The notes below the pieces were generated by a model. It had not been told where the DNA came from. It saw only the letters and a program-made list of their open reading frames with translations, and did not search any database. From NCBI GenBank assembly GCA_001002325.1, contig LCNZ01000001.1, positions 67,773 through 131,772 of the forward strand: 64,000 nucleotides of DNA. The letters run 5' to 3'. This DNA is from Candidatus Amesbacteria bacterium GW2011_GWB1_47_19. GTDB taxonomy: Bacteria > Patescibacteriota > Microgenomatia > CAZETR01 > Amesbacteraceae. The translations under genes were made by a program, and so were the position numbers. Below are positions 428 to 61,898 of the stretch, piece by piece (position 1 is the stretch's first letter; every line of letters starts with the position of its first letter).

Positions 428-1187
428 TGTGCATTGTCATCTCACTGATGAAAAGTTTAAGGGTGAGATAGGGGAAATTATTGTTAAAGCCAGGGGGGCG
501 GGGGTGAAGGCTATGGTAAATAACGCGGGGAATTTAGAGGAAAGCCGAAGGGGCGTGGAACTGGCGGAGAAATATGAGGAAGTGTGGACGACCGTCGGGA
601 TACATCCCGACGAAATTTTCAATTTACAATTTTCAATTTACAATCAATTACTTAATTTAACAAATCACAAAAAAGTTGTGGCTGTGGGTGAGACAGGGTT
701 GGATTTCAGGAACGGAATAACGGGAGAGGAGAAGGAAAGACAAACAGAACTGTTCAGGTGGAACCTGGAACTGGCCAAGGAAGCCGGTCTACCGGTGGTG
801 GTGCATTGCAGAAATGCTTTTGCAGAAGTATTTGAGATTGTTGAAAGCGCCGGTATAACCGGACAGATGCATTGTTTTACCGGGAGTATGGATTGGATGA
901 ATAAATTTGCGGATGCGGGTTGGTATATCAGTTTCGGGGGAATTATCACTTTTAAAAAAAGCCGGGAATTAAGAGAGGTGGTCAGGGCGGTACCCGAAGA
1001 TAAGATTCTCATTGAAACGGATGCGCCTTATCTGTCTCCGGAGCCGGTAAGAGGGGAAAGGAACGAACCGGCAAATATAGTAAGAGTTGCGGAGGTGATT
1101 GCCGAAGAGAGAGGGGTGACTTTGGACGATGTGTGCCGGTTTACAGCGACAAATGCGGTAAGATTGTTTAGTAAACTAAAGTTATGA
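420..1187 (+). CDS. tatD: TatD family metal-dependent DNase/hydrolase
   Basis: Begins IDVHCHL and contains GETGLD, VVHCR and ETDAPYL, the TatD signature blocks. An AT-rich heptamer-repeat insertion (FNLQFSIYNQLLNL) sits at nt 617-670. Confidence 0.85.
   Translation: MIDVHCHLTDEKFKGEIGEIIVKARGAGVKAMVNNAGNLEESRRGVELAEKYEEVWTTVGIHPDEIFNLQFSIYNQLLNLTNHKKVVAVGETGLDFRNGITGEEKERQTELFRWNLELAKEAGLPVVVHCRNAFAEVFEIVESAGITGQMHCFTGSMDWMNKFADAGWYISFGGIITFKKSRELREVVRAVPEDKILIETDAPYLSPEPVRGERNEPANIVRVAEVIAEERGVTLDDVCRFTATNAVRLFSKLKL
617..670. repeat. AT-rich heptamer tandem repeat (TTCAATT/TACAATT)n inserted in-frame in tatD
   Basis: ttcaatttacaattttcaatttacaatcaattacttaattta read directly. It is a local AT spike in a roughly 50% GC gene. 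Confidence 0.8.
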
Positions 1188-2647
1188 CCAGAAGAAGAGT
1201 GATGGAAATCGTACCGGGATTTATTTCCTGGAATATGATTTTGTTTTTGGTGTGGGGAGGTTATTTTTTCCCGATATTTACATCTTATTTCATCCTGGCT
1301 TTCGATGTTTACTGGGTGTACAGAGGGCTATCACTAACGGTGGCGGCAGTGTTGTCTCATTTCCGGATGCGGGCAACTGAAGCTACTGATTGGATGCGGG
1401 AGGTAAGAGGTTTCGGAGACTGGGAGAAGGTACGGCATGTGGTGATGATCATGGTGGCTAATGAACCATTGGATGTGTATACGCGGACGGTCGAAGCCCT
1501 GACCGTGCAGACTTTTCCATTAAAACAGATTGCCGTGGTGCTGGCGACGGAAGGGAGATATCCGAGGGGAAATGCCGATTGCGAGATTCTGAAAAAAAGA
1601 ATGGGGGATAAATTCGGAGAATTCTTAATTACCGTACATCCGGCTGATATTGCCGGGGAGATAAAAGGCAAGTCCTCCAATGAAGCCTGGGCTTCCCGGG
1701 AGGCGAAAAGAATTCTGGTAGATGAAAAGGGATGGGATATCCAGTTTATGACGATCACTTCCAATGATGCAGATGCCATACTGCATCACCAATATTTTGC
1801 CTGTATGACATTTAAATTCCTGGATGATCCCAACCGCTACGAAAGATTTTGGCAACCGGCTATTGTTTTTTATAACAATATTTGGAGGATTCCAGCACCT
1901 ACCAGAGTAATAAATACGTTGTCCAATGTATGGCAAATAAGCCTGCTGTCACGTAAAGACAGGTTGGTAAACTTCTCCAATTACACAGCCTCGCTGGTAA
2001 TGATTGACAAGATCGGCTATTGGGATGCGGATGTCATTCCCGAAGATTACCGGGTGTTCTTTAAGGCGTTTTTCAAGTTGGAGGGCAGAGTGGAAGTGGA
2101 ACCCATCTTTTTGTCTTCCAGCGCAGACGCCGCAGAATCGATAAGTACCTGGAAAACTTTCATAAACGACTATGAACAGAAAAAGAGGTGGGCTTGGGGG
2201 GTGTCCGACCTGCCCTTGTTTGCGGAGATGTATTTCAAACAGCCCGGTGTATCGTTCCTGAATAAAACACTGAGAATGATCAGGGTGGCGGCGGATCATC
2301 TGTTGTGGCCGGTGAACTGGTTTATTATCACCGTAGGAGTCTCCATAGTGACGCTGGTAAACCCGGTGTTTAAAAGAACTGCCTTGGGGTACATGCTGCC
2401 CAGAATATCGTCCGGAATCCTGACTGTGACTCTGGTGTTTTTGGCGATATTGCTAATAGTGGAATTACGGTCACGCCCTCCCAGACCGAAGGACATACCA
2501 AAGTGGCGAGTGTGGCTGACTCCCCTGGAGTTTGTACTGATGCCGGTAGCCGGATTTTTTTTCAACGCGCTACCGGGATTGGATGCGCATACCCGGCTGA
2601 TGCTGGGCAAGTATATAGAGTATCGGGTCACCGAAAAAGTTAAATAA
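1184..2647 (+). CDS. membrane glycosyltransferase, family 2-like (cellulose-synthase-like architecture)
   Basis: N-terminal TM helices, a central cytoplasmic domain with D..D-type motifs (VMIMVANEPLDV, TSNDADAIL), and C-terminal TM helices. The start is coupled to the tatD stop (ATGA overlap). Confidence 0.5.
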   Translation: MTRRRVMEIVPGFISWNMILFLVWGGYFFPIFTSYFILAFDVYWVYRGLSLTVAAVLSHFRMRATEATDWMREVRGFGDWEKVRHVVMIMVANEPLDVYTRTVEALTVQTFPLKQIAVVLATEGRYPRGNADCEILKKRMGDKFGEFLITVHPADIAGEIKGKSSNEAWASREAKRILVDEKGWDIQFMTITSNDADAILHHQYFACMTFKFLDDPNRYERFWQPAIVFYNNIWRIPAPTRVINTLSNVWQISLLSRKDRLVNFSNYTASLVMIDKIGYWDADVIPEDYRVFFKAFFKLEGRVEVEPIFLSSSADAAESISTWKTFINDYEQKKRWAWGVSDLPLFAEMYFKQPGVSFLNKTLRMIRVAADHLLWPVNWFIITVGVSIVTLVNPVFKRTALGYMLPRISSGILTVTLVFLAILLIVELRSRPPRPKDIPKWRVWLTPLEFVLMPVAGFFFNALPGLDAHTRLMLGKYIEYRVTEKVK

Positions 2648-2690
2648 CCAGTCAGTTGATAGTTCCCGCTAATTAGTAAATAATTGATTT

Positions 2691-4157
2691 ATGGCAGGCA
2701 GCCTAGAAAAGTGGGAAAGGAAATGGGGGTGGCTGGTGCTGCTTTTAGCGGTGGTGCTGTGTCTGAGACTGCCGAGCTTATTTGAACCATACTGGTACGG
2801 AGACGAAGGAATATATCTGGCAGTCGGCAGGGCGATAAGAGCGGGAGCGCATCTGTATAGCGGAGTTCACGATAATAAGCCCCCTTTTTTGTACCTGGCG
2901 GCGGCCTTGGCCGGGGGCAGTTTATTTTGGTTTAAATTCATAACCCTCACATGGAGTCTGATGACGATTCTGGTGTTTACCAAGCTGGCGCAAAAAGTAT
3001 TTACCGAAAGGTCCGGGGTTGTTAAGACTGTGGTGTGGGTCTTTGCTCTACTGACGGCCATTCCCATCTGGGAAGGAAACATCGCCAATGCGGAGCTGTA
3101 TTTTCTGCTGCCGACGATGGGGGCAGCTTATCTTCTGTGGAATAAACATCCGGATCTTAAAAAAATATGGTGGGCTGGTGTATTACTGGGCCTGGCAGGG
3201 TTATTTAAAATGCCGGCAATTCTGGAGGCCGGAGTATGGCCGGTGGTGTGGCTAATAGGACACGAGGAAAGGCGGGGATGGTGGCGAAAGAGCCTGGTTT
3301 TGGCGGCTGGAGTGGCCGTACCGATAGGGGTAAGCATTTTGTATTACGCAGCGGCCGGGGCAGGCAAGGAGTATTTTGCGGCAGCCTGGGCTCAAAACCT
3401 GCCATACCTCTCGACGTGGAAAGCCGGCGGGGGGAGTGGTATCTACTCACTGGGCGGGAGACTGGCGGCAGGAGTGCTGTTGATGATACCCCTAGTTATA
3501 AAGTATAAGAGCCTGGGAAGAAAAGGGGGCATAATTGCCGTGTGGGGATTGATAACGCTTTTTGCCTCTCTATTATCGGGAAGACCATACCCCCATTATT
3601 TGCTGCAGATGGCAGGTGTGGTGGCCCTGGCAACTGGACTGCTGATCAGAGGAGAGAGGGCGGAAAAGGCGATAGCCGGGACTTTTGGGGTGCTGATTGC
3701 GGCGGCTTTTATCGCTTTTAAATTCTATGTTTATCCGGTTACCGGGTATTACGTTAATTATGCACAATGGGTAACCGGGGTAAAAACAAAAACAGAGTAT
3801 TTCGGGTGGTTTAACCCCCAGGTCAACAGAAATTATGAAATTGCGGCGGAAATTATGGCTGGAAGTACACCTCACGACCGGGTGTTTATCTGGGGTGATG
3901 AACCCATGATTTATCCTATGGCGAAAAGATTGCCTGCGACTAAATATATTGTGGAGTACCATATCAAGGATTTTAAAGGTTTTAGAGAGACCATCTACAG
4001 TTTGACCGAACAACCGCCGAAATATATTGTCAGTTTCGGTTCTGAGGAGGAGCTGCCGGGACTGGCGGAGCTGTTGGGAAGAAAATACAAGACTGAGAAG
4101 ATGGTGGGGAATGCAAAAATATTCCGGTTGTCGGCCGTGGTGAGCTGGGAAAGGTAA
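2691..4157 (+). CDS. GT-C fold glycosyltransferase, family 39/83 (ArnT/PMT-like)
   Basis: Polytopic membrane protein with YWYGDEGIY...HDNKPPFLY near the N-terminus, typical of ArnT/PMT-family GT-C enzymes that use polyprenyl-phosphate sugar donors. Confidence 0.6.
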   Translation: MAGSLEKWERKWGWLVLLLAVVLCLRLPSLFEPYWYGDEGIYLAVGRAIRAGAHLYSGVHDNKPPFLYLAAALAGGSLFWFKFITLTWSLMTILVFTKLAQKVFTERSGVVKTVVWVFALLTAIPIWEGNIANAELYFLLPTMGAAYLLWNKHPDLKKIWWAGVLLGLAGLFKMPAILEAGVWPVVWLIGHEERRGWWRKSLVLAAGVAVPIGVSILYYAAAGAGKEYFAAAWAQNLPYLSTWKAGGGSGIYSLGGRLAAGVLLMIPLVIKYKSLGRKGGIIAVWGLITLFASLLSGRPYPHYLLQMAGVVALATGLLIRGERAEKAIAGTFGVLIAAAFIAFKFYVYPVTGYYVNYAQWVTGVKTKTEYFGWFNPQVNRNYEIAAEIMAGSTPHDRVFIWGDEPMIYPMAKRLPATKYIVEYHIKDFKGFRETIYSLTEQPPKYIVSFGSEEELPGLAELLGRKYKTEKMVGNAKIFRLSAVVSWER

Positions 4158-18120: not shown

Positions 18121-18984
18121 TCAAGATGGATTCCTTTGGGAATTCGGGTGAAAAAAAGCAAAACCCAAACCGATGTGTTCGGAGGTCATTTTAGGTTTCA
18201 TATATAAATACTGAAGAAGGAAGAAGAAAAGATTAAGAGGGTAAAGGAGCCAAGTCAAATTTTCAATTTTTAATTTACAATTTTCAATCAAATTCGATTT
18301 TCCAAATTTTTTAAGGCTTTCTTGATAAGCCACGGGTAAGTATTCACTAGCCCAGGGGTTGGCGGCAAGAAATTGGTGGTGGATGGAGGATTTATCAAAA
18401 AGCGGGCGGGCCTGGAGAATTTCGTGGGCGGTATAGAGATTTTGGGGCCGGATATTAAGATGGCCGTAATCCAGATATAGGTTGTCGCAGATTTTATCGC
18501 GGACGCGGGGGGATGAATGCTCCGGCAGGCGGGGAGGGCGACGATAAGACTTGGGTGAGAGATAGAGATAAAGGATAAAACGGGTGATCCACAGAGTGTG
18601 GGGTATGGTAATAACCATGATATCGATGTCGTCGTTTTCGGGGCAGTTATTCATGGCCAGAGCTCCGGTGATAAAAACCGCCCGAATAGTGGGGAAACGC
18701 CGGAGTGACTCCCCTACCCTGCGGGCGATAAGCCATTTTTTCCGGCTGTATATTTCACGCTGCCTGCGAATCGGGATTAATTTTTGTCGATGGGGAAGAA
18801 AACAGTAATTTTCAATTTTAAATTTATAGTTTTTAATCAATCTATTAATTTCCAATTTTGAAAAATGCGTGCGGATCTGCCAAAACCAAAGTTCTTCAAG
18901 GGTGAGAGGATAATCGAACCGATCTGAATAGCGAAGTGCCGAAAGAAGAAGACTACTGCTCCGGCAAGGCTGTGGAGATGCCAT
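18121..18984 (-). CDS. nucleotidyltransferase-domain protein (minimal NTase-like), hypothetical
   Basis: GALAMNNCPENDDIDIMVI resembles the Pol-beta-type NTase GS...DxD motif. Heptamer-repeat insertions sit near both ends, and the C-terminal approximately 30 aa are probably repeat-derived. Confidence 0.4.
   Translation of the reverse strand: MASPQPCRSSSLLLSALRYSDRFDYPLTLEELWFWQIRTHFSKLEINRLIKNYKFKIENYCFLPHRQKLIPIRRQREIYSRKKWLIARRVGESLRRFPTIRAVFITGALAMNNCPENDDIDIMVITIPHTLWITRFILYLYLSPKSYRRPPRLPEHSSPRVRDKICDNLYLDYGHLNIRPQNLYTAHEILQARPLFDKSSIHHQFLAANPWASEYLPVAYQESLKKFGKSNLIENCKLKIENLTWLLYPLNLFFFLLQYLYMKPKMTSEHIGLGFAFFHPNSQRNPS
18256..18310. repeat. AT-rich heptamer repeat at 3' end of NTase-like gene
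   Basis: caaattttcaatttttaatttacaattttcaatcaaattcgattttccaaatttttt. Confidence 0.75.
18806..18860. repeat. AT-rich heptamer repeat near 5' end of NTase-like gene
   Basis: aattttcaattttaaatttatagtttttaatcaatctattaatttccaattttg. Confidence 0.75.
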
Positions 18985-22702: not shown

Positions 22703-23839
22703 ATGATGAAAACACTAAAAGCTAACGACTCCGAGATCGTCGAAACCGCCGTAAAGGTACTAAAAAACGGGGGTTTAGTGATTTTTCCGACGGAAACGAT
22801 GTACGGAATCGGGGCAGATGCAACGAATGAAAAGGCTATAAACAAATTAAATAATTACAAAAAAAGACCTTTGGGGAAGCCTTATTCGATAGCAGTTACC
22901 GGTCAGGCTATGTCTGAGGAATATGCACAACTGAATAAAACAGCCAGGCAACTGTATAAGAGTTTTTTACCGGGACCGGTCACGATAATTTCAAAAATCA
23001 AAATTCAAGATTCAAATCAAATTCAAAAATCAAAATTCAAATTAGCTTCAGGTATCGGGAGTGAGTTGGGAACGATAGGAATTAGAATCCCGGATTATCC
23101 GCTGGTTTTGGATATTATTGAAAAATTAGGCAGGCCAATTACGGCGACTTCGGCAAATGCGAGTTACAAGAAAAGACCGTACAAAATATCAGATATTTTC
23201 GACAATATTTCGGATAAGCAAAAATCGTTGATCGACCTGGTGATAGATGCCGGAGAACTACCGCATAACGAACCATCGACGGTAATCGACACGACACTAG
23301 ATGACCCTGTCGTCCTTCGCCAAGGAGAAGTAGTTATTGGTTCATCGCCTAAAGTTATAAGCAGGTCGGAGGAGGATACCAAGAATACAGCAAAGGAGCT
23401 GTGGCAAAGTTATGAAAAACATGCGGGGCAGAGGGCGATTGTGTTTGCGCTGGAAGGACCGATGGGGGCAGGGAAGACAGTATTTACCAAGGGGCTTGCT
23501 AAAGCTATGGGGATTGGGGATGAAATACTATCCCCAACTTACAATCTACATCACAATTACCAATTTTTAATTTACAATTTACAAACAAATTCCAATAATC
23601 AAATTCCAAATATCAAAACATTAAGTCATATTGATGCGTGGAGGATGAGCGGACCGAAGGAGCTGGAAGCGCTGGGGATGAGGGGGTTGATTCATGACAA
23701 ATCCGTGCTGGCGATAGAATGGGCGGAAAGAGTGGGTGATACGATACGCAATTATAATGAGGAGGCGATAATTATTTGGGTAAAAATAAAATACGGAAAA
23801 AAAGAAAAAGAGAGGGAAATTAGTTGGGGAGCTATTTAA
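22703..23839 (+). CDS. fused L-threonylcarbamoyladenylate synthase TsaC (YrdC/Sua5 domain) and t6A ATPase TsaE (YjeE)
   Basis: The N-terminal half has the YrdC motif (VIFPTETMYGIGADATNEKAINKL..KKRPLGKPYSIAV). The C-terminal half has the TsaE P-loop (GPMGAGKTVFTKGLAKAMGI...SPTYNL...HIDAWRM). Two AT-rich repeat insertions are in-frame. Confidence 0.7.
   Translation: MMKTLKANDSEIVETAVKVLKNGGLVIFPTETMYGIGADATNEKAINKLNNYKKRPLGKPYSIAVTGQAMSEEYAQLNKTARQLYKSFLPGPVTIISKIKIQDSNQIQKSKFKLASGIGSELGTIGIRIPDYPLVLDIIEKLGRPITATSANASYKKRPYKISDIFDNISDKQKSLIDLVIDAGELPHNEPSTVIDTTLDDPVVLRQGEVVIGSSPKVISRSEEDTKNTAKELWQSYEKHAGQRAIVFALEGPMGAGKTVFTKGLAKAMGIGDEILSPTYNLHHNYQFLIYNLQTNSNNQIPNIKTLSHIDAWRMSGPKELEALGMRGLIHDKSVLAIEWAERVGDTIRNYNEEAIIIWVKIKYGKKEKEREISWGAI
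22988..23045. repeat. AT-rich heptamer tandem repeat (TCAAAAA/TCAAAAT/TCAAGAT)n in tsaC-tsaE
   Basis: tcaaaaatcaaaattcaagattcaaatcaaattcaaaaatcaaaattcaaattag. Confidence 0.8.
23541..23620. repeat. AT-rich heptamer repeat block in tsaE portion
   Basis: acaatctacatcacaattaccaatttttaatttacaatttacaaacaaattccaataatcaaattccaaatatcaaaac. Confidence 0.75.
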
Positions 23840-23900
23840 TTTACAATTTACAATTTACAATCAAATTTCAATGAGCAAATCAAAAATTCCAAACATTTTA
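23837..23900. repeat. AT-rich heptamer repeat (AATTTAC)n spanning tsaCE stop and tsaD start
   Basis: taatttacaatttacaatttacaatcaaatttcaatgagcaaatcaaaaattccaaac. Confidence 0.8.
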
Positions 23901-25049
23901 GCAATTGATACATCGCGCGACCCCACTACACCTACGGCTTCGTTAGGGGCAAGTGAGACGGCTCCACTAATTTTAGCTATAGACACTTCTTGTGATGAGA
24001 CTGCAGTTGCTGTAACTCAAGGTGCGACTATATTGTCGAATGTCATCTGGAGCCAGGCGAGTGAACATGCAAAGTTCGGAGGAGTAATGCCCAGTTTAGC
24101 ACAAAGAATGCATGAGGAAAGAATTGATTGGGTGGTTAAGAAGGCGATTCAAGATTCAAGATACAAGATACAAGATATTGAGGCGGTGGCGGTAACGGCG
24201 GGACCGGGACTGGCGATTGCGCTGGAAGTAGGAATCAGAAAAGCCAAGGAAATGGCAAAAGAATTAAAAATACCGTTAATACCAGTGAATCATGTTGAAG
24301 GACATCTTCTGAGCCCATTAGCTTTTCCCCGTACCACCCCCCACCCCCCTCCTATTTTAGGAGGGGGAATTAAAGAGGGTGGTATTTCATTTCCGGCTTT
24401 CGGATTGGTAGTTTCGGGCGGGCATACGGAATTGATTTTGATTAAAAAAATCGGGAAATATGAAATTTTAGCGCAAACAACGGATGATGCTTTGGGAGAA
24501 GCGTTGGATAAAGCAGCGAGAATGCTGGGATTGGGATATCCGGGTGGGGCAATCTTAGAAAAAATGGCCCGATCCGGCAAACCGAAATCCTATTCCCTTC
24601 CCCTGCCGATGGCCCGCCATCAGGACAAAAGCGCCTTCTCTTATTCAGGACTAAAAACGGCATTCTACCGCCTGATAAGTGCTCAGGGTCCAGTGCTCAG
24701 TGCTCAACAAGTCTATGATCTGGCGGCGAGTTTTCAGGACCGGGCGTTTGAGCATCTGGTCAGAGTTTGCAGTCGGACGATTCACGATTCACAATTTACG
24801 ATTCACGATTTACTGCTGGGGGGTGGGGTGGGGGCAAATACGGAATTGAGAAAAAGACTGCGAAAAATGTGCAGGGAGTTGGGATTAAATTTGCGAGTCC
24901 CCTACTCTGCAAAACTTTACGGTGATAATGCGGGGATGATTGGGGTCGCGGCAGGATTTAAGATCCTAGGTGCTAGATATCAGATGCCAGATCTGAAAAA
25001 GATTGACCGGGTACCGAGGTGGAAAATAAATGAAATTTATGATTTATGA
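23871..25049 (+). CDS. tsaD: tRNA N6-adenosine threonylcarbamoyltransferase TsaD (Kae1/YgjD)
   Basis: ILAIDTSCDETAVAV, NHVEGHL and VVSGGHTELI motifs. The N-terminal extension duplicates the ILAIDTS segment, and internal repeat/hairpin insertions are present. Confidence 0.85.
   Translation: MSKSKIPNILAIDTSRDPTTPTASLGASETAPLILAIDTSCDETAVAVTQGATILSNVIWSQASEHAKFGGVMPSLAQRMHEERIDWVVKKAIQDSRYKIQDIEAVAVTAGPGLAIALEVGIRKAKEMAKELKIPLIPVNHVEGHLLSPLAFPRTTPHPPPILGGGIKEGGISFPAFGLVVSGGHTELILIKKIGKYEILAQTTDDALGEALDKAARMLGLGYPGGAILEKMARSGKPKSYSLPLPMARHQDKSAFSYSGLKTAFYRLISAQGPVLSAQQVYDLAASFQDRAFEHLVRVCSRTIHDSQFTIHDLLLGGGVGANTELRKRLRKMCRELGLNLRVPYSAKLYGDNAGMIGVAAGFKILGARYQMPDLKKIDRVPRWKINEIYDL
24144..24178. 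repeat. heptamer tandem repeat (ATTCAAG/ATACAAG)x5 in tsaD
   Basis: gattcaagattcaagatacaagatacaagatattg encodes IQDSRYKIQDI. Confidence 0.85.
24345..24367 (+). other. perfect 9-bp stem / 5-nt loop hairpin inside tsaD coding sequence
   Basis: cccccTCCT-atttt-AGGAggggg read directly. It encodes the non-conserved insertion PHPPPILGGGI between conserved TsaD blocks. Confidence 0.7.
24777..24814. repeat. heptamer tandem repeat (GATTCAC/AATTTAC)x5 in tsaD
   Basis: cgattcacgattcacaatttacgattcacgatttactg encodes IHDSQFTIHDLL. Confidence 0.85.
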
Positions 25050-25066
25050 TTCATGATTCAAGAATT
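25033..25066. repeat. heptamer tandem repeat (AATTTAT/GATTTAT/GATTCAT)n at tsaD 3' end
   Basis: aaatttatgatttatgattcatgattcaagaattg spans the tsaD stop codon. Confidence 0.85.
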
Positions 25067-25082
25067 GGGGTAAAATACGGGC

Positions 25083-37313: not shown

Positions 37314-37903
37314 AGTTTTTGAACTTTCTCCGTTTGCTCTTCTATACCGCCAGATGAACCCTCCGGAACCGGTAAAGGCTGAAAGCGATGATATATGGGT
37401 TCCTGAAAAACCCCATAAACGGAAATAACATATTCAGTATTGTAGGTCCAGGAAGGTTTGGGGGCTACGTAGAGGGTTCTTTTATCCTGGCTGACCTGGG
37501 CGTTTACCGGCTGAAAAGGGGAAACAAAGACACGAATCGAGGTAAGGTTGATTTCCTGATCAAAAGTAAAAGCCAAAGCCATTTCGGGAAAAGCAAGCTT
37601 GGGTTGAGCGTCGGGGGGATAAATTTGCACCAATTTGGGGTCGGGAGTTGGATATTGGGTGGTGTTGGGTTGGATTATGACCGGAGGCGGGGGCGGGGGA
37701 GTAGGGGAGGAGATTTGCAGATAGAGATAAACGAGTGAAATAAGGGACAAAACGCACAATCCCAGAAGAATTTTTTTAGATTTAGGAGAAAAGCGCGAAA
37801 ACATGAATTTAATTACAGAAATAATTTTCCGGTTTGACCCAAATACCTCCAATAGATACCTCCATATGTAAATGGGTAAAGCCCATAGGATAAAGAGTAG
37901 CAA
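37310..37903 (-). CDS. membrane-anchored Pro-rich protein, hypothetical
   Basis: TM (ILLGLCVLSLISLVYLYL), a poly-Pro run and a beta-rich C-terminus. The start probably lies at an internal Met because the ORF overlaps its upstream neighbour. Confidence 0.35.
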   Translation of the reverse strand: MLLFILWALPIYIWRYLLEVFGSNRKIISVIKFMFSRFSPKSKKILLGLCVLSLISLVYLYLQISSPTPPPPPPVIIQPNTTQYPTPDPKLVQIYPPDAQPKLAFPEMALAFTFDQEINLTSIRVFVSPFQPVNAQVSQDKRTLYVAPKPSWTYNTEYVISVYGVFQEPIYHRFQPLPVPEGSSGGIEEQTEKVQKL

Positions 37904-40900
37904 TAATAGTTCCAGAGGGAAGATTGGTGCCAGTAGAGTATGAACCCGAGATGTGAGTTAACACTATTCTTACATTACCAGAAACATAATGTGCCCTGTA
38001 ACCAGAGCCAGCAGGATTGGCCTTACCCCAAGAAAAATTCCAGCGGACGGATTGACCATTGAGAAGGGGAAGTTTGACGTCAGCAACCCCACCACTTGGT
38101 GCTTTGACATCCATAGCATATCCGTAATAAGGACAACGGCTGGCAACGCCGGAGCAGACACTGGGGACACCTATGCTTGGACCGTAGCAGCCTGGCGCGT
38201 CTTGAGGGAGGGCCCATTTACAGGGCGTCCAACCTTGCCAGTAGGGGGTACTACCATGCCCAGTATCGTTAGAAGAGTTGTAAGAATAGTAAGTTATTAT
38301 TCCATCGTCTATGGGACAACTCGAGGGATCCCCCCAACCACCCCCCCCCCCCCCCCCCCCCCCACCGACACCACTATCGTCACCGGCAAAGAAGAAGGAA
38401 AGCGGGGTGGCGGGGATGACATAAGCGCCGGAGTTGATGATGAAGACAACAAAAGTAACAATGATCGGGATTACCAGGACGGTGATGACTATGGGTAAAA
38501 CACTAACGCCGGCTATGACTGTGACCACACCTGTAATTATTGAACCGCCGGTAGAAGCAATTTGCTGAAGAGATTGGACTCCCGGACCGGTGCCGGTAAA
38601 GAATGACTGGAAGGCGGAGCCAACAAAACCGCCGACACCAGTGGCTGCCAAGGAGCCGGTAATAGAAAGTCCGGCAAGCTGGGCACCAATAAGGCCGATG
38701 ATGGCACCAATAATCATGGGAGCGTTTTCTTTGATTTTTTTGGCGAGTTTTTTAATGACCCCCCAAGTGACATCTAATACTAGACCAACGACAAACGCGG
38801 CAACGTTTCCGATAACAGGAACTGTCGATCCGACAGCCTGAAGAGCTAAATGAAAGCCGAGCTTTATGGCGATTTTTTTAGCAATGGAAGTGACAGTCTT
38901 ACCAATTACAGTCTTGGCTAATTTTCCCCAAGCGGCTTTGGCGATACTTTTTACGGGGGAGAGGACCCTGTTGCCGATAATGGTGTAGCGGTGACCGGCA
39001 AGCCAGGAAGATCCTGTGGCACTTCGAACAGCGCCAGTAATGCCCGACTTAGTGAGAGAGAGGGAAATCTGTTTGCCAATTGTCGAGGAGAAGAACTGGC
39101 GACCGAGGGGGGAGGCGGAGAAACGCTCCAAAACCTCCAACACCCGGGGGTGGAGCAGGTCGCGGGGTTTTTGGCTGACGAATTTAAGCAGGTCGGAGAA
39201 TGGTCCGGGCAAATTGAGAGACCCCAAATGGGATTGGAGATGGAATGCCTGGGGAGGACCGAACTGGCGGAACAGGTTGGAAAACAATACTTGGGGATTC
39301 AGGTTCTGCAGATTGAGTCCAGAGGTTTGGGAGGGCTGTTTTGAGCGAAGAAGTTCTACGGACAAGGGAAACAATTGCTGAAAGGCTTGATTTTGGACAG
39401 AGAAAAGTTTGTCCGCGGGAGTGGAAGGGGCGCCGGCAAATCCAGCAAGAAAATAACCGGCCTTTACGAATGGGACCGACTGTTTGGACAGAATCTTGGC
39501 GATGGGTGAAGGCAGGCCGCCCATACGGAGCTGGTGATACAGATATTGAGCAGCCGCAGCATCGTCTTTGAGTTTGTAATTGAACATGGTGAAGTGTTCC
39601 CCGAGGTCCCTGAGAAGTATTTCCGGAGAACTTACTTTGTTGGCTTCCAATTTTGGAAGGAAGGTGAGCTGAAGATAGCGGGAGACTTCCTGGGGAGTGG
39701 CATCGGGACGGTAGAGTTTGAAGAGAAGAAGGTGGTCGGACAGTTCCGCGGCAAGCTGGGGGGTGACATTGGCCCGAGTTAATCTGGTGGAGACAACTAA
39801 ATGGAAAGAGGCCAGTTCAGGGTGGAGGGAGAGAAGTGCCGGAATAGCTGGAGACAGAACAGAAAAAGCTTGCGCCAGAGACATCCTGCCGCCTGAGGAG
39901 GAGAGGATTAGGTCAACAGCCGCGGGAATGGTGGTAGCAGGAGAAGCCGCCAGGTGGGTGGTCAGGAGAGGTTGTAAGGCAAACAGGATTCTGGATTCCG
40001 GATAATGGCTCGGAAGAGTAGAAAAAGAGGAAGATAAAGAGGATTTGATAGCCAGGAGATTCTCCGGAGATCCGGGAATATCGGAGAGATTGAGAGCCGA
40101 GGTCGAATGTAAATACTGAACAAGAGGCGAGCGCAGGTCCCGTAGAACCGGCGGGGCATGGGGATCAAAAATTTGTGCGATCTGGGAAATTGATTCAACG
40201 TACTCACTTGGAATGTAAGTGGAGGCGGAGGCGGAAAAAATTCTAGTAATATGGTCGGGTAACGAGGCGGGATTTGTGCCGAGAAGGGGAAATAGCTGAT
40301 TGAGAATTTGAGAGGCCTCATTCGGCGCCAGGGGGGCTGTAGACAGGATTTGGGAGGCAGCTGCAAGAAAATGTACCGGAGCGTAGGTTTGACTGAAAGT
40401 TTGGTGGGATGAGGAGGCGAGTACGGAGGCAATCTGTGGGGAAAAACCGGAAGATTTAAAGGCGTTTTCCAGCTCAACTAGGGTGGCAGTGGGGTGCGAT
40501 GTAAGGGTGGAATGGAGAGTAATGTGGGCAGAGACAATTTGTTCCGGAGTCAGCTTGAGTTTAGGTGAGAGGGAGAGAAGGGTGGATTGGGCAGCGGACA
40601 AGGAGGAGGATAATATTTCTGTGGCTTGGGGAGGGAGATTGGCGGCAGAGGTATATGCTGCAAAGATATGACTGGATAGGAACTCTGATTTTTGCGCAGA
40701 AATACCCGCGGTACGGAGCCTGGCGGTGATAATCTGGGGGGTTAAGATAGAGAGGGGGGTATCGGATAACAGATCGCGCAGCGCGGATGAAGCCTGGGTG
40801 GTTTGAGATGGCGAAAGATTAAGTTGGGATGAGAAGGAATGAATTACATCCAATGCTGAAGTTTGAGCAATTGAGACAGCCGGCGGGGCAATGAGGGCAG

Positions 40901-41249
40901 ACTGATACGCCTGTGAAAGGCCGGTAGAAAGGGCGGAAATCTGGGGGGAGGTAAGACGCGCAGTGGAGGGAAGCTTCTCAATAAGAGAACGGACGGCCTC
41001 GGGGGAAGATTGGGACGCCAGAGCAGGAAAAACCGATTGAAAAACGGCTTGGGTCTGGGCGGAAGAAAGTTTGAGAGACACAGAAAGTTCTGATAACGTG
41101 TCATTGGCGGCTACAAGTGCAAACGGAGATACGGAAATTCCGGCAGGGGTCAGGATGACGGCGGGAGCAATTAAGGCCGAACGGAAAGAAGAGTGGGAGG
41201 ATTTGGCAACGACGGCAGCCTGGGAAGAAGACAGACCGGCCCGGGCCAC
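37809..41249 (-). CDS. giant low-complexity surface/membrane protein with C-terminal M23/LytM-like (possibly degenerate) peptidoglycan hydrolase domain; T4SS-associated
   Basis: About 800 aa of S/A/L/Q-rich low-complexity sequence, then a cluster of TM helices, a Gly run encoded by a 23-nt homopolymer, and a Cys-rich region. The C-terminus (GYRAHYVSGNVRIVLTH...GFTHLHMEVSIGGIWVKPENY) aligns with the M23 peptidase at 10975 (GYGNMVVITH...GPHLHLEILENGRTVNP). YAMD stands in for HxGxD. Confidence 0.5.
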   Translation of the reverse strand: MARAGLSSSQAAVVAKSSHSSFRSALIAPAVILTPAGISVSPFALVAANDTLSELSVSLKLSSAQTQAVFQSVFPALASQSSPEAVRSLIEKLPSTARLTSPQISALSTGLSQAYQSALIAPPAVSIAQTSALDVIHSFSSQLNLSPSQTTQASSALRDLLSDTPLSILTPQIITARLRTAGISAQKSEFLSSHIFAAYTSAANLPPQATEILSSSLSAAQSTLLSLSPKLKLTPEQIVSAHITLHSTLTSHPTATLVELENAFKSSGFSPQIASVLASSSHQTFSQTYAPVHFLAAASQILSTAPLAPNEASQILNQLFPLLGTNPASLPDHITRIFSASASTYIPSEYVESISQIAQIFDPHAPPVLRDLRSPLVQYLHSTSALNLSDIPGSPENLLAIKSSLSSSFSTLPSHYPESRILFALQPLLTTHLAASPATTIPAAVDLILSSSGGRMSLAQAFSVLSPAIPALLSLHPELASFHLVVSTRLTRANVTPQLAAELSDHLLLFKLYRPDATPQEVSRYLQLTFLPKLEANKVSSPEILLRDLGEHFTMFNYKLKDDAAAAQYLYHQLRMGGLPSPIAKILSKQSVPFVKAGYFLAGFAGAPSTPADKLFSVQNQAFQQLFPLSVELLRSKQPSQTSGLNLQNLNPQVLFSNLFRQFGPPQAFHLQSHLGSLNLPGPFSDLLKFVSQKPRDLLHPRVLEVLERFSASPLGRQFFSSTIGKQISLSLTKSGITGAVRSATGSSWLAGHRYTIIGNRVLSPVKSIAKAAWGKLAKTVIGKTVTSIAKKIAIKLGFHLALQAVGSTVPVIGNVAAFVVGLVLDVTWGVIKKLAKKIKENAPMIIGAIIGLIGAQLAGLSITGSLAATGVGGFVGSAFQSFFTGTGPGVQSLQQIASTGGSIITGVVTVIAGVSVLPIVITVLVIPIIVTFVVFIINSGAYVIPATPLSFFFAGDDSGVGGGGGGGGGGWGDPSSCPIDDGIITYYSYNSSNDTGHGSTPYWQGWTPCKWALPQDAPGCYGPSIGVPSVCSGVASRCPYYGYAMDVKAPSGGVADVKLPLLNGQSVRWNFSWGKANPAGSGYRAHYVSGNVRIVLTHISGSYSTGTNLPSGTIIATLYPMGFTHLHMEVSIGGIWVKPENYFCN
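38341..38363. repeat. homopolymeric C23 (G23 on the coding strand) tract inside the giant surface-protein gene
   Basis: Counted directly: 23 consecutive C. On the minus strand it encodes the Gly run in ...DDSGVGGGGGGGGGGWGDP. Confidence 0.85.
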
Positions 41250-53180: not shown

Positions 53181-53530
53181 ATGGAAAAATTTGTAAAATT
53201 AACGCCCAGAAATTTTCCGGCGAGGCTAAGGATTATCCAGGCGGAAAGCGATACCATCAAACCCAACACGGAATAAGTGATGGTGGATTGGGCACGGGCA
53301 GCGGATTCCTTGTTAGCTCCAGCCGATAGAAACTGGAAACCGCCGATGATCAACATGATCAGGGAGGCGGTTGCGACAAGAGTGAGAAGGGAAGCGAGGA
53401 CCCGACTGAAAACCGTTTCCAGTCCGGTGATTCGGGCGGGAGGGGCAGGGGTAGCGGCGGAAACCTGAGGCACATAGAGTATAAGAGTGGAAGAGTAGAA
53501 GAGTAGAAGTTTTAATTTGGCTTTGGACAT
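53159..53530 (-). CDS. T4SS pilin-like protein (VirB2/TrbC topology), paralog 1
   Basis: Signal peptide, hydrophobic helix 1, a short polar loop (SAGANKESAARAQ) and hydrophobic helix 2. It is a paralog of the eight downstream genes. Confidence 0.55.
   Translation of the reverse strand: MSKAKLKLLLFYSSTLILYVPQVSAATPAPPARITGLETVFSRVLASLLTLVATASLIMLIIGGFQFLSAGANKESAARAQSTITYSVLGLMVSLSAWIILSLAGKFLGVNFTNFSICIISGC
53470..53515. repeat. purine-rich 8-mer repeat (AGTAGAAG)n encoding the pilin paralog 1 signal peptide
   Basis: tataagagtggaagagtagaagagtagaagttttaatttggc. The reverse complement encodes MSKAKLKLLLFYSSTLIL. Confidence 0.75.
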
Positions 53531-58539: not shown

Positions 58540-58599
58540 TTGTTATTAGTTATTAGTTGTTCGTTGATCGTAAGAATCGGGTGGGGATGGTAAAATTCA

Positions 58600-59334
58600 G
58601 TGATGCCGGATGTGTATACGGCCAGAAAAACCGGAGAGCCGGAACCACCAATACCAACAGTACCCTTGCCGGTAAGGGAAGAAGCTATAGGAAAGGTGCT
58701 GGAGCCATTGTCCGAGGAAAGAAGCCCTGATTACTGGAGGAAGATTACAGACCGAGTGTTACGGGAGGCGGGGGAGTCTCCCCGCAGAGTGGTGTATGGG
58801 GCGTATCACGTGAGGCCGCGCGAGAGGTTTATTATGCAGCAACAGGATGAGGAGATAGTGCTCCTGCTGCGGGCACACCCGATTACCAATGCAGGATGGA
58901 TGGTAATGGTATTGGTGATGCTTATAATCCCTTCACTGCTATCGGTAATCGGGATATTCGGCGGGGTAGACTGGAGATTTGTATTTATGGGGAAAATGGC
59001 CTGGTACCTGGTGATTACAGCCGTGGCTTTTGAGAAGTTTCTGTACTGGTACTACACCTTGTTTTTGGTGACCAATGAACGGCTGGTGGATATTGATTTT
59101 AATAATCTGCTGCAGAGAGTTATGACGTATGCCAATCTGAACCATATTGAGGAGCCGACGATGATGACCGGGGGATTTATCCGGTCCCTTTTTCAGTACG
59201 GGGATGTGCATATTACCACGGCGTCAGAAGCGCCGACTATCGAGGCGCTGGCTGTACCCTGGCCGCATAAAGTGATTGATATTATCAGTCGGTTATCCGA
59301 GGAGCTGGAAAAAAGAAGGGAGAGGGGGGAGTAG
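58600..59334 (+). CDS. bPH_2 (YdbT/DUF304-like) membrane protein
   Basis: Two TM helices followed by a PH-like YLVITAVAFEKFLYWYYTLFLVTNERLVDIDF. Its N-terminus MMPDVYTARKT resembles MPDVYTSTKT of ORF 41589..42500. Confidence 0.45.
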   Translation: MMPDVYTARKTGEPEPPIPTVPLPVREEAIGKVLEPLSEERSPDYWRKITDRVLREAGESPRRVVYGAYHVRPRERFIMQQQDEEIVLLLRAHPITNAGWMVMVLVMLIIPSLLSVIGIFGGVDWRFVFMGKMAWYLVITAVAFEKFLYWYYTLFLVTNERLVDIDFNNLLQRVMTYANLNHIEEPTMMTGGFIRSLFQYGDVHITTASEAPTIEALAVPWPHKVIDIISRLSEELEKRRERGE

Positions 59335-59608: not shown

Positions 59609-61462
59609 ATGCAGGTCAGAGTCGGGAAAATCGTCGGACGGCTGGGGGGTAGGTGGTGGGGCCAGGTGCATGACTATACGCCGGTGACAGAAGAAGGAAG
59701 CGGCGGGACTGAAAAAGGTCGGCTGGTGGCTGTGCTGGGTTTTGAGAGAGGAGTGGATGAAGGACAGGTGGGATTGGCAGAAGCGGGGCGGGAAATTCTG
59801 GCCAGGGTGCATGAGATGTATTACGGAGGAGAAGAGTCCGGACTGGCGGGAGTGCGCCGGGCAGTGAATGAAGTGGCCGGGGAATTTTCGGGAGCGGAAG
59901 TCGGGTGCATTGTACTGAAGGATGGAGTGATTTATGCAGCGGCGGGTCCGGGGGTGGGAATATGGGTGAGAAACAAAGATAAAGAGGGATGGCTCATAAG
60001 AGCAGGTGAACCAGAAAGCGGGAGAGTGGAAGTGATGGGGTATAGCGGGAAGATGACCGGGGATATGACGGTGGTGATGGGGAACAGCAGATTCTGGCAG
60101 AGCGTGCCGGAGGGAATGCTGAGAGCTGTGGTGACAAATTTGAACGGGGAAATGCAGTCGGCTGTGGAAACGCTGGCAGCGGTGGAACACGGGAGCGATA
60201 AAGGAGGAGGAGAAGTAGGAACAATAATAAAGATATCGGGAATGGGAGAGGAGAAAGGAGAAAGGAGAGATGAGAAAGAGTTGAAAAGGCCGGATTTTAG
60301 AAACCGGGCGGGCAGACTGTGGGGCAGGCTGCGGGAAAAATGGCCCCGGTCGGGAGTAGTGTATGTGGGGTACCAAGATAAAACCAAAGCGAGGAAAAGG
60401 ACCGCTTATGCGGGTTTGGGATTTATGGCCGTAGTGCTGGTGCTTGTGGGAGGGGGAAGAATCGCCAGTCAGAAAAAAGCCAGGGAAATGGGAATGGAGA
60501 GAGAGGCAGTAGCCCAGGTGACGGAAAAATTCCAACAGGCGAAAGTGCTGGTGGATATGAATCCGGTGAGGAGCCGGGAACTGTTGGCCGAAGTGGGAGA
60601 AGCGGTGAAACAACTGGAGAGCCAAAATGTAAAAAACGAAGATTTGGAGAGAATAAAAGAGGAGATAGGTGAGGTGCTGGGCGCGGCGTCCGGAGTAAAG
60701 CAGGCGGAGGCCAGGGAAGTGGTAAATCTGAACCTGGTGCGGGAGGGAATGGTCGGGAAGCAGCTGACAGGCAGCGGAGAAAAATTGTTGGTGCTGGATG
60801 ATGAGGGCAGCAGACTGACGGAGATAAATCCGAGGACCGGAGCGGCAAAGGTGATAGCGGGGCCGGAAAGTCTGGGACAAGCCAGACTGGTAGCACTGGA
60901 GGAGGAAAAAGTTGCGGTATTTGCGGATAAGGGAGTGGTAGTGTGCGCGATAAGGGGGTGGAAATGTGCGACAGAGATCGGGAAGGATGACGAATGGGGG
61001 GAAATTAAACACATAGGTATATTCGGAGGCGGTGTATATCTTTTGGACAGCGGTAAGGGAAAAATCTGGAAGTATCCTGCGACGGAGAACGGATTTGGAA
61101 AGAAAAAGGAATGGACAGGCGGAGTAGAGGGGGGTACGAGTATGGCAATAGACGGCAGTATCTGGCTAATGTCCGGTACGGAGTTGAGGAAATATACTTC
61201 GGGAGAGAGGGAGACTTTTGAGGTAACCGGACCGGATAAGAACTGGGGAGGACGCGCGCAGGCGTATACCGCATGGGGGTTGGAAAATCTGTATATTCTG
61301 GATGGGGAAAACAAGCGGGTGGTAATATTGAAAAAGAACGGAGAATATATAGGACAGATGGTGAGCGATAAATTGGAACATGCCACAAGTATGGTAGCCG
61401 ACGAGGCAGGAAAGAAAATATTCTGGGTGGCTAGGAGCCAAGTGTGGGAGGCAGGGATGTGA
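59609..61462 (+). CDS. hypothetical protein (N-terminal globular domain, central TM, C-terminal repeat/beta-rich domain)
   Basis: 617-aa ORF with Gly/Glu-rich composition and a TM at about residues 265-285 (AGLGFMAVVLVLVGG). I prefer it over the antisense 520-aa His/Pro-rich ORF. Confidence 0.4.
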   Translation: MQVRVGKIVGRLGGRWWGQVHDYTPVTEEGSGGTEKGRLVAVLGFERGVDEGQVGLAEAGREILARVHEMYYGGEESGLAGVRRAVNEVAGEFSGAEVGCIVLKDGVIYAAAGPGVGIWVRNKDKEGWLIRAGEPESGRVEVMGYSGKMTGDMTVVMGNSRFWQSVPEGMLRAVVTNLNGEMQSAVETLAAVEHGSDKGGGEVGTIIKISGMGEEKGERRDEKELKRPDFRNRAGRLWGRLREKWPRSGVVYVGYQDKTKARKRTAYAGLGFMAVVLVLVGGGRIASQKKAREMGMEREAVAQVTEKFQQAKVLVDMNPVRSRELLAEVGEAVKQLESQNVKNEDLERIKEEIGEVLGAASGVKQAEAREVVNLNLVREGMVGKQLTGSGEKLLVLDDEGSRLTEINPRTGAAKVIAGPESLGQARLVALEEEKVAVFADKGVVVCAIRGWKCATEIGKDDEWGEIKHIGIFGGGVYLLDSGKGKIWKYPATENGFGKKKEWTGGVEGGTSMAIDGSIWLMSGTELRKYTSGERETFEVTGPDKNWGGRAQAYTAWGLENLYILDGENKRVVILKKNGEYIGQMVSDKLEHATSMVADEAGKKIFWVARSQVWEAGM

Positions 61463-61463
61463 G

Positions 61464-61898
61464 ATGAAGGTAAATAATAGAAAGGCCAGGTTTAACTACG
61501 AAATCGGGGAAAAGTGCGAAGCGGGGATTGAGCTGAAGGGGCCGGAAGTTAAATCGGCCAAGCTGGGCCAGGCGGATCTAGGAAACGCCTTTATTAAAAT
61601 TTTGGCTTCTAAATTCAAAAATCAAAAAGAGGCTTGGGTGTATAACCTGCATATCTTCCCGTATAAATATGCGGATAATACGAATTACGACCCGGCGCGG
61701 CCCAGAAAACTACTGCTGCACCAGAAGGAAATAGTTCAGCTGTTGTCTAAAATGAAACAAAGCAGGCGGTTATTGGTACCCACGGCAATGTACACAAAAA
61801 GCGGTCTAGTAAAAGTTGAAGTAGCGCTGGCGAGAGGCAAGAAAAAATACGAGAAGAGGGAAGCGATAAAGAAGAGGGATGAGCAGAGGGGAGGATAA
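61464..61898 (+). CDS. smpB: SsrA-binding protein SmpB
   Basis: NRKARFNYEI...GIELKGPEVKS...AWVYNLHI...LLLHQKEI and a basic C-terminal tail. It carries a short AT-rich repeat insertion (ASKFKNQKE). Confidence 0.9.
   Translation: MKVNNRKARFNYEIGEKCEAGIELKGPEVKSAKLGQADLGNAFIKILASKFKNQKEAWVYNLHIFPYKYADNTNYDPARPRKLLLHQKEIVQLLSKMKQSRRLLVPTAMYTKSGLVKVEVALARGKKKYEKREAIKKRDEQRGG
61607..61631. repeat. AT-rich heptamer repeat (AAATTCA/AAAATCA) inserted in smpB
   Basis: ttctaaattcaaaaatcaaaaagag encodes SKFKNQKE inside the otherwise conserved SmpB. Confidence 0.75.

Follow-up and report, generated by a model that had tools for sequence, protein, structure and literature searches.

The 64,000-nucleotide stretch analyzed here, hereafter referred to as the window, derives from a groundwater population of Candidatus Amesbacteria (Microgenomates, in the candidate phyla radiation [CPR], or Patescibacteria), and its TatD, TsaC-TsaE, nucleotidyltransferase (NTase)-like, and SmpB proteins are residue-identical to those of deposited Amesbacteria genomes (GW2011_GWB1_47_19, GWA1_44_24, and others). 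About 95% of the window is coding according to a simple longest-open reading frame (ORF) model, and its RNA genes are one tRNA gene and the tmRNA gene. Tandem repeats of 7-nucleotide (nt) units run through several of its conserved genes, and the nature of these repeats is the subject of the present analysis: a preliminary description of the window had listed eleven such blocks, all of them AT rich, and had attributed them to a shared generative mechanism such as slippage, and not to copies of one element. The gene names it had proposed hold for TatD (positions 420 to 1187, plus strand), the Sua5/TsaC-TsaE fusion (22703 to 23839), TsaD, SmpB (61464 to 61898), and Wzy_C (31306 to 32493, minus strand), and also for the NTase-like gene (18121 to 18984, minus strand), which gives a weak Polbeta match, yet is the ortholog (E = 4e-49) of a clear nucleotidyltransferase in the compared locus L019. 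The window TsaD (P0121) shares a 90% cluster with P0001. The order TsaC(Sua5)-TsaE fusion, TsaD, and, in most cases, LeuRS is kept across the sampled Microgenomates loci (22703 to 27317 in the window; L002 to L020, L046, and L047).

Period-7 arrays were recovered by Tandem Repeats Finder at nine of the eleven listed loci, and, together with a lag-7 self-match scan, they were placed at 614 to 644, 18258 to 18288, 18807 to 18825, 22991 to 23041, 23562 to 23584 (with a period-14 tail to 23617), 23838 to 23861, 24146 to 24177, 24777 to 24810, and 25035 to 25060, whereas the block at 31985 to 32015 turned out to be a two-copy repeat of period 14 and the one at 61607 to 61631 contains only about three poor units. 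Over the whole window, the scan found 19 lag-7 runs versus 0.6 in locally shuffled sequence, and each of the other periods from 1 to 15 gave 1 to 6 runs, with the exception of the harmonic 14. The AT richness of the listed blocks against their background was confirmed (5 to 35% G+C in the arrays versus 41 to 53% in the 2-kb bins of the window); about seven more heptamer arrays lie beyond the list, and some of them are not AT rich (AGTGCTC twice, TAATTTT, GTTGTTC, GTTATTA, and AGGAGAA). That the repeats are a DNA-level phenomenon, read through in frame in conserved genes, was borne out as well, even though it is trivial that intact conserved genes keep their frame open across them. However, the claim that the length of every block within a coding sequence is divisible by 3 did not survive, given that, in the coordinates of that description, the lengths are 54, 55, 55, 58, 80, 35, 38, 31, and 25 nt, of which only 54 is divisible.

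For the comparison among clades, we considered 52 loci around TsaD from species-representative genomes, including 31 CPR loci (534 kb) and 20 non-CPR loci (285 kb). The CPR loci contain 37 period-7 arrays, nearly all within long ORFs, versus 1 in shuffles and 1 to 6 arrays for the other periods that are not multiples of three; the non-CPR loci contain 2 arrays, versus 1 in shuffled sequence, which is similar to the neighboring periods. The excess of period 7 alone among the periods that are not multiples of three is in line with a plain microsatellite, whereby slippage with a preferred 7-nt step would act independently at each locus and selection would keep the in-frame, stop-free outcomes in tolerant loops. 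In the same direction, among the long simple repeats of many bacteria, heptanucleotides reportedly rank first in abundance, for which contacts of the polymerase have been put forward as an explanation (Mrazek et al. 2007, as summarized in PMC4679880 and PMC4692102).

The blocks beginning at 614, 18258, 18807, 23555, and 23831, however, align with one another over a common architecture of four AATTTWC units, followed by AATCAAW or AAACAAA and then by degenerate A/T/C-rich heptamers, which together make up one arm of about 55 to 63 nt. The copy in TatD (614 to 670, plus strand, sense, left-arm type; nhmmer E = 1.4e-6) reads AATTTTC AATTTAC AATTTTC AATTTAC AATCAAT before its degenerate tail and encodes FNLQFSIYNQLLNLTNHK, with HPDEIFNLQFSIYNQLLNLTNHK as the junction peptide. 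In the TsaE domain, the copy at 23555 to 23620 (plus strand, sense; profile E = 1.6e-7) is made of nine heptamers (63 nt; AATTACC AATTTTT AATTTAC AATTTAC AAACAAA TTCCAAT AATCAAA TTCCAAA TATCAAA) and is translated as NYQFLIYNLQTNSNNQIPNIKT, the junction peptide of the block being NYQFLIYNLQTNSNNQIPNIK. A further copy (23831 to 23893, plus strand; profile E = 1.8e-8) bridges the stop codon of TsaC-TsaE and the start of TsaD, with three clear AATTTAC units followed by AATCAAA TTTCAAT GAGCAAA TCAAAAA TTCCAAA, and the ATG of TsaD (23871) and its first eight codons (MSKSKIPN) come from the tail of this copy. The NTase-like gene carries two copies, both on the plus strand and antisense to the gene: one at 18258 to 18310 (profile E = 3e-8), whose coding strand reads ATTGAAA ATTGTAA ATTAAAA ATTGAAA and yields the peptide LIENCKLKIEN, and one at 18807 to 18861 (profile E = 9.5e-6), which encodes LIKNYKFKIEN. 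The ortholog in L019 has a CATTCTA array at the site of the former, and the region of the latter is an insertion relative to it.

A profile derived from the five blocks matched the TsaD insertion of a distant Patescibacteria genome (L049; E = 2.8e-5), where the match reaches into the tail and the layout of nine units is the same as in the window TsaE copy. The scan of metagenomes with the 23-nt junction pattern AATTTWCAATTTWCAAWCAAATY returned at least 120 contigs, and the copy statistics given from here on refer to the matches listed. In the 118 distinct copies, two more AATTTTC-type units stand upstream of the pattern and are preceded by random sequence, which gives the element a sharp 5' edge; four clear units are present in 86 copies, a variable second unit in 29, and three units in 3, and no copy has five or more. 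Among 121 copies, 62 are followed, 20 to 100 nt downstream, by an inverted partner, (GAAAATT)n, and a single copy has the partner upstream; the full element is an imperfect palindrome of 100 to 125 nt. Thus, the view that the blocks are not copies of one element fails for these five, which share a single architecture recurring in at least 120 metagenome contigs.

The same data weigh against slippage for the AATTTWC class, which the preliminary description had proposed: the unit number is fixed, the 5' edge is sharp, and the tail is conserved without being a repeat. Furthermore, no array differs in length among three assemblies (the window and the independent metagenome contigs L001 and L054, 99.9% and, in two aligned pieces, 99.2 to 99.97% identical to the window, respectively) over the stretch from 21.2 to 28.8 kb, so that the suggested search for repeat-length polymorphism found L001 and L054 identical to the window at all arrays. 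Since the gain or loss of 7 nt shifts the reading frame, stepwise growth by single units is impossible for arrays in essential genes, and several of the arrays described below are length neutral. In favor of slippage, the TsaE insertion is 42 nt longer than the L007-type orthologs, which corresponds to six units, and the units differ between most of the locus-specific arrays considered below. On the whole, we regard slippage, independent at each locus, as an unlikely origin of these repeats.

The comparison of assemblies also bears on two other explanations. The arrays might be phase-variable contingency loci, in which the gain and loss of units would switch genes off and on, as in neuO of Escherichia coli K1 or at the hmw promoters of Haemophilus; neuO offers a precedent for a translated heptanucleotide repeat, in which AAGACTC units are translated to RLKTQDS heptads and only unit numbers divisible by three leave the gene "on" (PMC3046976). 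However, the arrays considered here are short (3 to 5 units) and imperfect, they are identical in the three assemblies, and they reside in core genes (TsaD, TatD, SmpB, and RnpA) and not in surface or virulence genes, while the only split TsaD allele, in L054, is due to a 124-nt deletion elsewhere in the gene; this makes phase variation very improbable. As for an assembly or sequencing artifact, which could be suspected in a window that comes from a metagenome assembly and in low-complexity DNA that is error prone, its probability is close to nil, because independent assemblies have the same arrays base for base, several deposited Amesbacteria genomes encode identical proteins, the frames of conserved genes are open through every array, and the element occurs in more than 100 contigs from many studies.

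In the full element, the complementarity of the two arms reaches 81.7%, versus 23 to 55% when the pairing is slid, and the RNA fold has an energy of -25 kcal/mol (z = -4.4). However, RNAalifold gave no consensus structure, with a double change in 1 of 31 pairs and a paired fraction equal to that of shuffles, and Rfam had no significant match to the element. A selected RNA hairpin was rejected for the lack of covariation and of an Rfam family, and since neither compensatory changes nor an RNAalifold consensus were found, the arms are conserved as sequence. A full palindromic copy lies within a 23S rRNA gene (L092, 2487 to 2618), in the manner of an intervening sequence or an expansion segment, and similar flanks are found in L071, L083, and L147.

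Regarding protein-coding genes, where an ORF of at least 150 amino acids was taken as long, the 53 partnered copies obtained with a stricter definition of the inverted partner than the one behind the count of 62 fall outside long ORFs in 48 cases and inside in 5. Solo arms, in contrast, lie in sense within ORFs in 34 cases and antisense in 2, with 31 outside any long ORF, and all three frames are used. The 20 annotated host ORFs (out of 39 element-bearing ORFs in all) fall in 14 Pfam-defined families, two of the ORFs having no Pfam match. Hosts include RrnaAD (KsgA type), formyltransferase, Pth, IPP transferase, LeuRS, ArgRS, a class I tRNA synthetase, and SecA, in addition to RecG, a CarD/TRCF-domain helicase, Mur ligase, Wzy_C, GT4, DUF2298, and TsaD, whereas in the window the hosts are TatD, TsaE, and the NTase-like gene. 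This sample of metagenomes was gene blind, and TsaD accounts for 2 of the 20 annotated hosts; the best matches of these two TsaD proteins are named CPR loci (70% and 49% identity to L049).

The unequal use of the strands follows from the unit itself. AATTTTC is open in every frame, and on the complementary strand each frame runs into a TGA within three units, which explains why solo arms are mostly in sense, why full palindromes are rare in the sampled ORFs (5 of 53), and why antisense copies are few and, in both antisense copies of the window, the units are changed exactly at the would-be stops (in the 18258 copy, a TGT variant averts an in-frame TGA). Because one strand of the arm has no stop in any frame, a sense copy with a length divisible by three is simply translated. 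Considering coding arrays in general, 27 of 46 units are stop free in every rotation on the sense strand, compared with 20.5 predicted by composition-matched shuffles and 15 on the antisense strand. Idealized arrays would hold 17 in-frame stops, each of which is removed by a unit variant, and, of 81 departures from the consensus unit, 18 sit at the 4% of positions that would be stops. Such variants include ATTAACA to ATTCACA in unit 2 (L007, L009, and L017), ATGCTAA to ATGTCAA (L019), and ATTGAAA to ATTGTAA (NTase-like gene of the window).

In seven GT4 orthologs, the element occupies the same codon, and its two units outside the search pattern are 96% identical, versus 64 to 70% for the flanking coding DNA, in a set that was ascertained by the pattern itself (23 conserved bases) and that does not sample decayed copies. 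This level of identity is a further point against slippage. It also fits the possibility that the repeats are functional cis-elements, bound by a protein able to read units of 7 bp or 7 nt in tandem, with the intragenic copies kept for that function. The omega repressor of plasmid pSM19035, a ribbon-helix-helix protein, binds arrays of 7-bp heptads, and a cold-shock-type single-strand binder would be another possible type of reader. Cold-shock protein binding to heptamer repeats is discussed in PMC4679880. The unit number fixed at four and the fixed geometry of the inverted pair agree with such a function, as does the conservation of the arms without compensatory changes, which fits sequence recognition better than an RNA hairpin; moreover, L007 and L017 share an identical 33-nt array, though neither is found among the listed pairs of TsaD genes with at least 68% identity. 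On the other hand, units vary widely from locus to locus and, at one and the same site, from lineage to lineage, so that one sequence-specific reader cannot fit all of them, copies occur in any frame of unrelated genes, resembling tolerated insertion more than placement, no candidate protein was identified, and the GT4 set carries the ascertainment just mentioned. Given the fixed four-unit design and the conservation at the nucleotide level, a binding-site function is the most serious rival, although it seems to us rather unlikely.

Three further possibilities were set aside. Carriage by phages was rejected on the basis of 2.9 million viral contigs, which gave 3 pattern matches, the one examined being a chance match in DNA of 24% G+C. 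A promoter or terminator role for the AATTTAC arrays was discarded since TTTACA-N17-TACAAT needs at least 4.5 units, and the intergenic copy at 23838 has three, without a -10 hexamer at the right spacing. Finally, the window contains 23 matches to the AATTTWC dimer at about 10 loci, all on the plus strand; this bias may be due to chance, only five copies being solid, and an orientation linked to replication is not supported by 89 metagenome loci, which divide into 43 and 46 relative to the local GC skew.

The remaining arrays, which we term class B, are short, with about four to five heptamer units and a unit sequence peculiar to each locus, and they concentrate in TsaD. Here the window presents four of them, all on the plus strand. 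Site 1 (24146 to 24177; GATTCAA GATTCAA GATACAA GATACAA GATA) encodes IQDSRYKIQDI, an AGTGCTC array at the junction of a helix-loop-helix (24678 to 24706) encodes ISAQGPVLSAQ, and site 3 (24777 to 24810; 4.9 units of ACGATTC) encodes TIHDSQFTIHD, sites 1 and 3 being length neutral, whereas an ATTTATG/ATTCATG array at the 3' end (25035 to 25060) holds the TGA stop (25047 to 25049) and extends into the spacer before LeuRS. A junction peptide of TsaD is AIQDSRYKIQDIEAV. In L005 and L006, five CATAATT units occupy the columns of site 3. Counting the CPR loci other than the window, TsaD has 18 of the 37 arrays in 32 kb, i.e., 6% of the sampled DNA, in comparison with 4 arrays in 23 kb of TsaC-TsaE, 2 in 46 kb of LeuRS, which lies immediately downstream, and none in 86 kb of three other well-sampled ORF families; in the window, the segment from 22.7 to 25.1 kb holds 10 of the 19 arrays. 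Arrays are also found in several lineages in the NTase-like gene, RNase H, Wzy_C, and DUF4012, and those of RNase H (L002 and L003) and of the NTase-like gene are at the same site across lineages.

At TsaD site 1, the array covers the same 18-codon segment, with the same length and codon register, in the window and in L007, L017, L009, L019, L002, and L036, and weaker arrays are present in L011 and L047. The units, however, differ across lineages (GATWCAA, AATTAAC, AATTAAA, AATGCTA, AATGTYC, and CTAAATA), the 33-nt array shared by L007 and L017 being the case of identity noted above. The occurrence of different units at the same codon positions points to a homogenization in place, that is, to concerted evolution within one array, and not to fresh insertion. 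Conversion of class B arrays by genome-wide unit families was ruled out, as the arrays within one genome differ in their unit. A feedback of ANN codons on the genes for N6-threonylcarbamoyladenosine (t6A) was also considered, but, with 3 to 5 ANN codons per 11 by hand count, the TsaD arrays were not clearly above an ordinary CPR protein by a rough estimate, and the idea was dropped as evidence.

The preliminary description had depicted the repeats as lineage-specific insertions that create extra loops, and alignment with orthologs upheld this for TsaC, TsaE, and SmpB but not for TatD and TsaD. The tail-type, A-rich heptamer block of the TsaC domain (22988 to 23045, plus strand; TCAAAAW, AATTCAA, and AATCAAA) adds 11 residues that are absent from all 20 Microgenomates orthologs, the TsaE block adds 14 to 18 residues compared with the same orthologs, and the weak A-rich block of SmpB (61607 to 61631, plus strand), which encodes SKFKNQKE, overlaps an insertion of 5 to 6 residues relative to solved structures. 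The TatD block, in contrast, aligns without gaps to PDB 2gzx and to non-CPR TatD, with no net change in length, and other Microgenomates orthologs carry element-like peptides in its place (NNFQFS, NLQLSI, and LKSQIPNPNE), an outcome that the preliminary description had itself named as refuting an insertion. Likewise, the length of TsaD site 1, of site 3, and of the AGTGCTC array is unchanged relative to CPR orthologs, and for sites 1 and 3 it also agrees with non-CPR orthologs, whereas the copy in the L049 TsaD lies in an insertion region. In an AlphaFold model of TsaD (mean predicted local distance difference test [pLDDT] score of 81.6), the arrays map to the C-terminal ends of long helices and to the turns that follow, with a confidence mostly of about 90 (87 to 96 by ten-residue block); site 1 corresponds to the end of the helix spanning residues 74 to 96 and its turn, with pLDDT above 90. 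According to this model, the TsaD arrays are ordinary parts of the fold and not extra loops, located at helix ends and loops.

Taken together, these results lead us to propose, with a probability that we estimate at about 60%, that the five AATTTWC blocks are copies of a CPR-wide family of noncoding repeat elements and that the remaining blocks are class B arrays made uniform in place. The full form consists of two facing arms forming a palindrome, located between genes and in 23S rRNA genes, and single arms are found in unrelated housekeeping ORFs, with a MITE-like (miniature inverted-repeat transposable element) or REPIN-like copy mechanism, or gene conversion, as the presumable means of spread. 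An arm landing in frame on the sense strand would be translated to peptides such as NFQFSIFNFQSN, KFSIFNFQFSNKS, or IFNFQFSIFNQI, and an inserted copy would survive where the protein tolerates an extra peptide, as at helix ends and in loops. Class B arrays, at least in TsaD, overlay native segments without a change in length and would be kept internally uniform in place, the likeness of the units within an array being presumably maintained by some upkeep. A bolder alternative is that an active, CPR lineage-wide process writes or maintains modules of four heptamer units, e.g., through a heptad-recognizing protein that copies or converts them, and overlays essential genes in a length-neutral way, with TsaD and TsaC-TsaE as preferred or best-tolerated targets. 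It may be speculated that the loss of t6A would then loosen the maintenance of the reading frame and so buffer frame-shifted intermediates in these two genes; we consider such a process decidedly improbable.

Several points weigh against the proposal of a CPR-wide element family accompanied by class B arrays. The CPR origin of the metagenome contigs rests on the TsaD of two contigs and on the array-bearing named loci. All five copies of the window are solo arms, no full palindrome being present in the 64 kb; no clear target-site duplication was seen by eye in the flanks of 43 full elements, and no transposase or other mobility signature turned up, with no search made for a partner gene. The TatD copy without change in length is not predicted by simple insertion and needs either a later deletion of neighboring codons or a replacement by conversion. 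With respect to class B, the unit differs at each locus, so that the element family does not explain these arrays, and the only ground for grouping them with it is that both are built of about four 7-nt units. The preference for four units as a general feature of arrays (the mode among 383 arrays in 1.38 Mb of mostly CPR DNA, 13 of which have six or more) is itself partly a detection effect, as three-unit arrays were scored only if nearly perfect.

The proposed family finds its closest model in the Rickettsia palindromic elements (RPEs; Ogata et al. 2000), the reference example of in-frame repeat insertion into ORFs as reviewed in PMC10969869. The two have in common a multicopy, nonautonomous palindromic family in small genomes, with copies in frame in unrelated housekeeping ORFs, at places where the protein can bear the additional peptide translated from them, and also in RNA genes. 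Differences concern the arm, which in CPR is made of four tandem heptamers and is about 55 to 63 nt long, whereas RPEs are described there as about 100 to 150 nt and not as heptamer arrays; the copies in ORFs, which in CPR are mostly half elements and in some cases overlay native sequence without added length; and the host clade. The likeness rests on structure and placement, a relationship of sequence not being expected. Repetitive extragenic palindromic (REP) sequences of proteobacteria and their REPIN arrangements (bacterial interspersed mosaic elements), associated with RAYT transposases, are extragenic and GC rich and are defined by a hairpin and GTAG. As in these, the CPR element has a short conserved unit, which stands alone or is doubled in inverted orientation around a short spacer, a form able to fold into a hairpin, and it is highly multicopy and homogeneous within the family; unlike these, it is AT rich, built of heptamers, and common inside ORFs, and no RAYT-like gene was seen, none having been searched for.

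Heptamer families are known in other bacteria, such as the short tandemly repeated repetitive (STRR) sequences of Calothrix and Nostoc and GGGAATC of Xanthomonas and Nostoc (PMC4692102), TAACTGA of Beggiatoaceae and cyanobacteria (PMC4679880), and the elements of four GGACCGG units of Geobacter metallireducens, found within and between genes (PMC2700814). The CPR repeats share with them the tandem 7-nt units, the many dispersed copies, the lineage specificity, and a function that is unknown in every case, and they resemble the G. metallireducens family in particular for the four units and the occurrence both within and between genes. However, while those families are mostly intergenic, GC rich or stop rich, and variable in copy number, the CPR units are AT rich, stop free on one strand, and fixed in number, the element has a conserved tail and an inverted partner, and its copies are translated in core genes. 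The poly-psi repeat of neuO (E. coli K1 prophage CUS-3) is comparable in that a 7-nt repeat is read in all three frames and three units make one 7-residue peptide repeat, but it has 2 to 93 perfect units and acts as a slippage on/off switch of one surface-modifying gene, whereas in CPR the arrays are stable, with about four imperfect units each, and lie in many core genes (PMC3046976). Our full-text searches of the literature returned no description of heptamer repeats or in-frame repeat elements in CPR/Patescibacteria.

CPR/Patescibacteria genomes have about 1 Mb and almost no spare DNA, and yet the repeat family appears to have spread into their core translation, tRNA modification, and envelope genes, besides 23S rRNA. 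If confirmed, it would represent an independent and much more widespread case of "selfish DNA inside protein-coding genes," for which Rickettsia has been the clearest example so far. The element would account for many odd low-complexity segments of CPR proteins (NFQFSIFNFQ and KLKIEN), which annotators and structure predictors could mask, and it could serve as a marker to trace CPR lineages. Moreover, since its four-unit design resembles the unexplained heptamer families of Geobacter, cyanobacteria, Xanthomonas, and Beggiatoaceae, the mechanism at work here might explain those too. Should an active module-writing process prove true instead, it would constitute a new way of remodeling proteins in minimal genomes, beyond tolerated junk.

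TsaD also presents features distinct from its heptamer arrays. A GC-rich hairpin at 24331 to 24385 (CCACCC..CCCCTCC-TATTTTA-GGAGGGG..GGGTGG; -32.8 kcal/mol, z = -4.2) is translated in frame, and the loop it encodes is disordered in the model (residues 155 to 172, pLDDT of 41 to 69). Orthologs have peptides of the "SPLLNxGEG" type or heptamer arrays at this loop, which looks like a second class of in-frame repeat. The 124-nt deletion that splits the L054 TsaD begins exactly at this hairpin, and not at a heptamer array. In addition, an N-terminal extension of 31 residues (23871 to 23990) is absent from all relatives, and the model shows residues 1 to 28 as disordered; two copies of the sequence for the ILAIDTS motif flank a GC-rich insert of about 49 nt, and the start codon lies within the tail of the heptamer element.

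Outside the TsaC-TsaD region, further heptamer arrays on the plus strand were found at 31296 to 31317 (GTGCTCA, at the junction of the stop of Wzy_C with the start of RNase H, two minus-strand genes; the AGTGCTC unit of TsaD recurs here), at 31746 to 31773 (four TAATTTT units, antisense in Wzy_C and encoding KVKNLKLKI, where one unit variant averts an in-frame stop), at 34183 to 34207 (3.6 GTTGTTC units in RnpA [33968 to 34306, minus strand], with no net change in length compared with the Pfam profile), and at 58542 to 58571 (GTTATTA/GTTGTTC, in the spacer between a gene with a SpoIID domain and the ORF at 58600 to 59334), besides an AGGAGAA array at 60246 to 60278. Longer arrays of the GATACAA-type unit of TsaD site 1 exist in other CPR contigs, as in L142, where 11 units (3068 to 3144) lie in a 430-amino-acid ORF.

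Octamer arrays of the unit AGAGTAGA (about 4 to 5 units) occur on the same strand at three loci, namely, in the Wzy_C coding sequence (31700 to 31748), in the N-terminal region of an ORF resembling a type IV secretion system (T4SS) pilin (53476 to 53509), and just upstream of the tmRNA gene (63818 to 63850), and the same unit at several loci makes them another repeat family. SmpB and the tmRNA gene (63413 to 63785) are on opposite strands and 1.5 kb apart, the former with the weak heptamer block and the latter with the octamer array just 5' of it. A C homopolymer of about 24 nt (read as G on the coding strand; 38338 to 38363), possibly prone to slippage, lies in an ORF of 1,146 amino acids (37809 to 41249) without a Pfam match. 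Finally, the GC skew is positive in all 2-kb bins of the window (1 to 64000; 0.04 to 0.45), despite roughly equal amounts of genes on the two strands, and another Microgenomates genome is reported to show a comparable disparity between its strands (PMC7143001).

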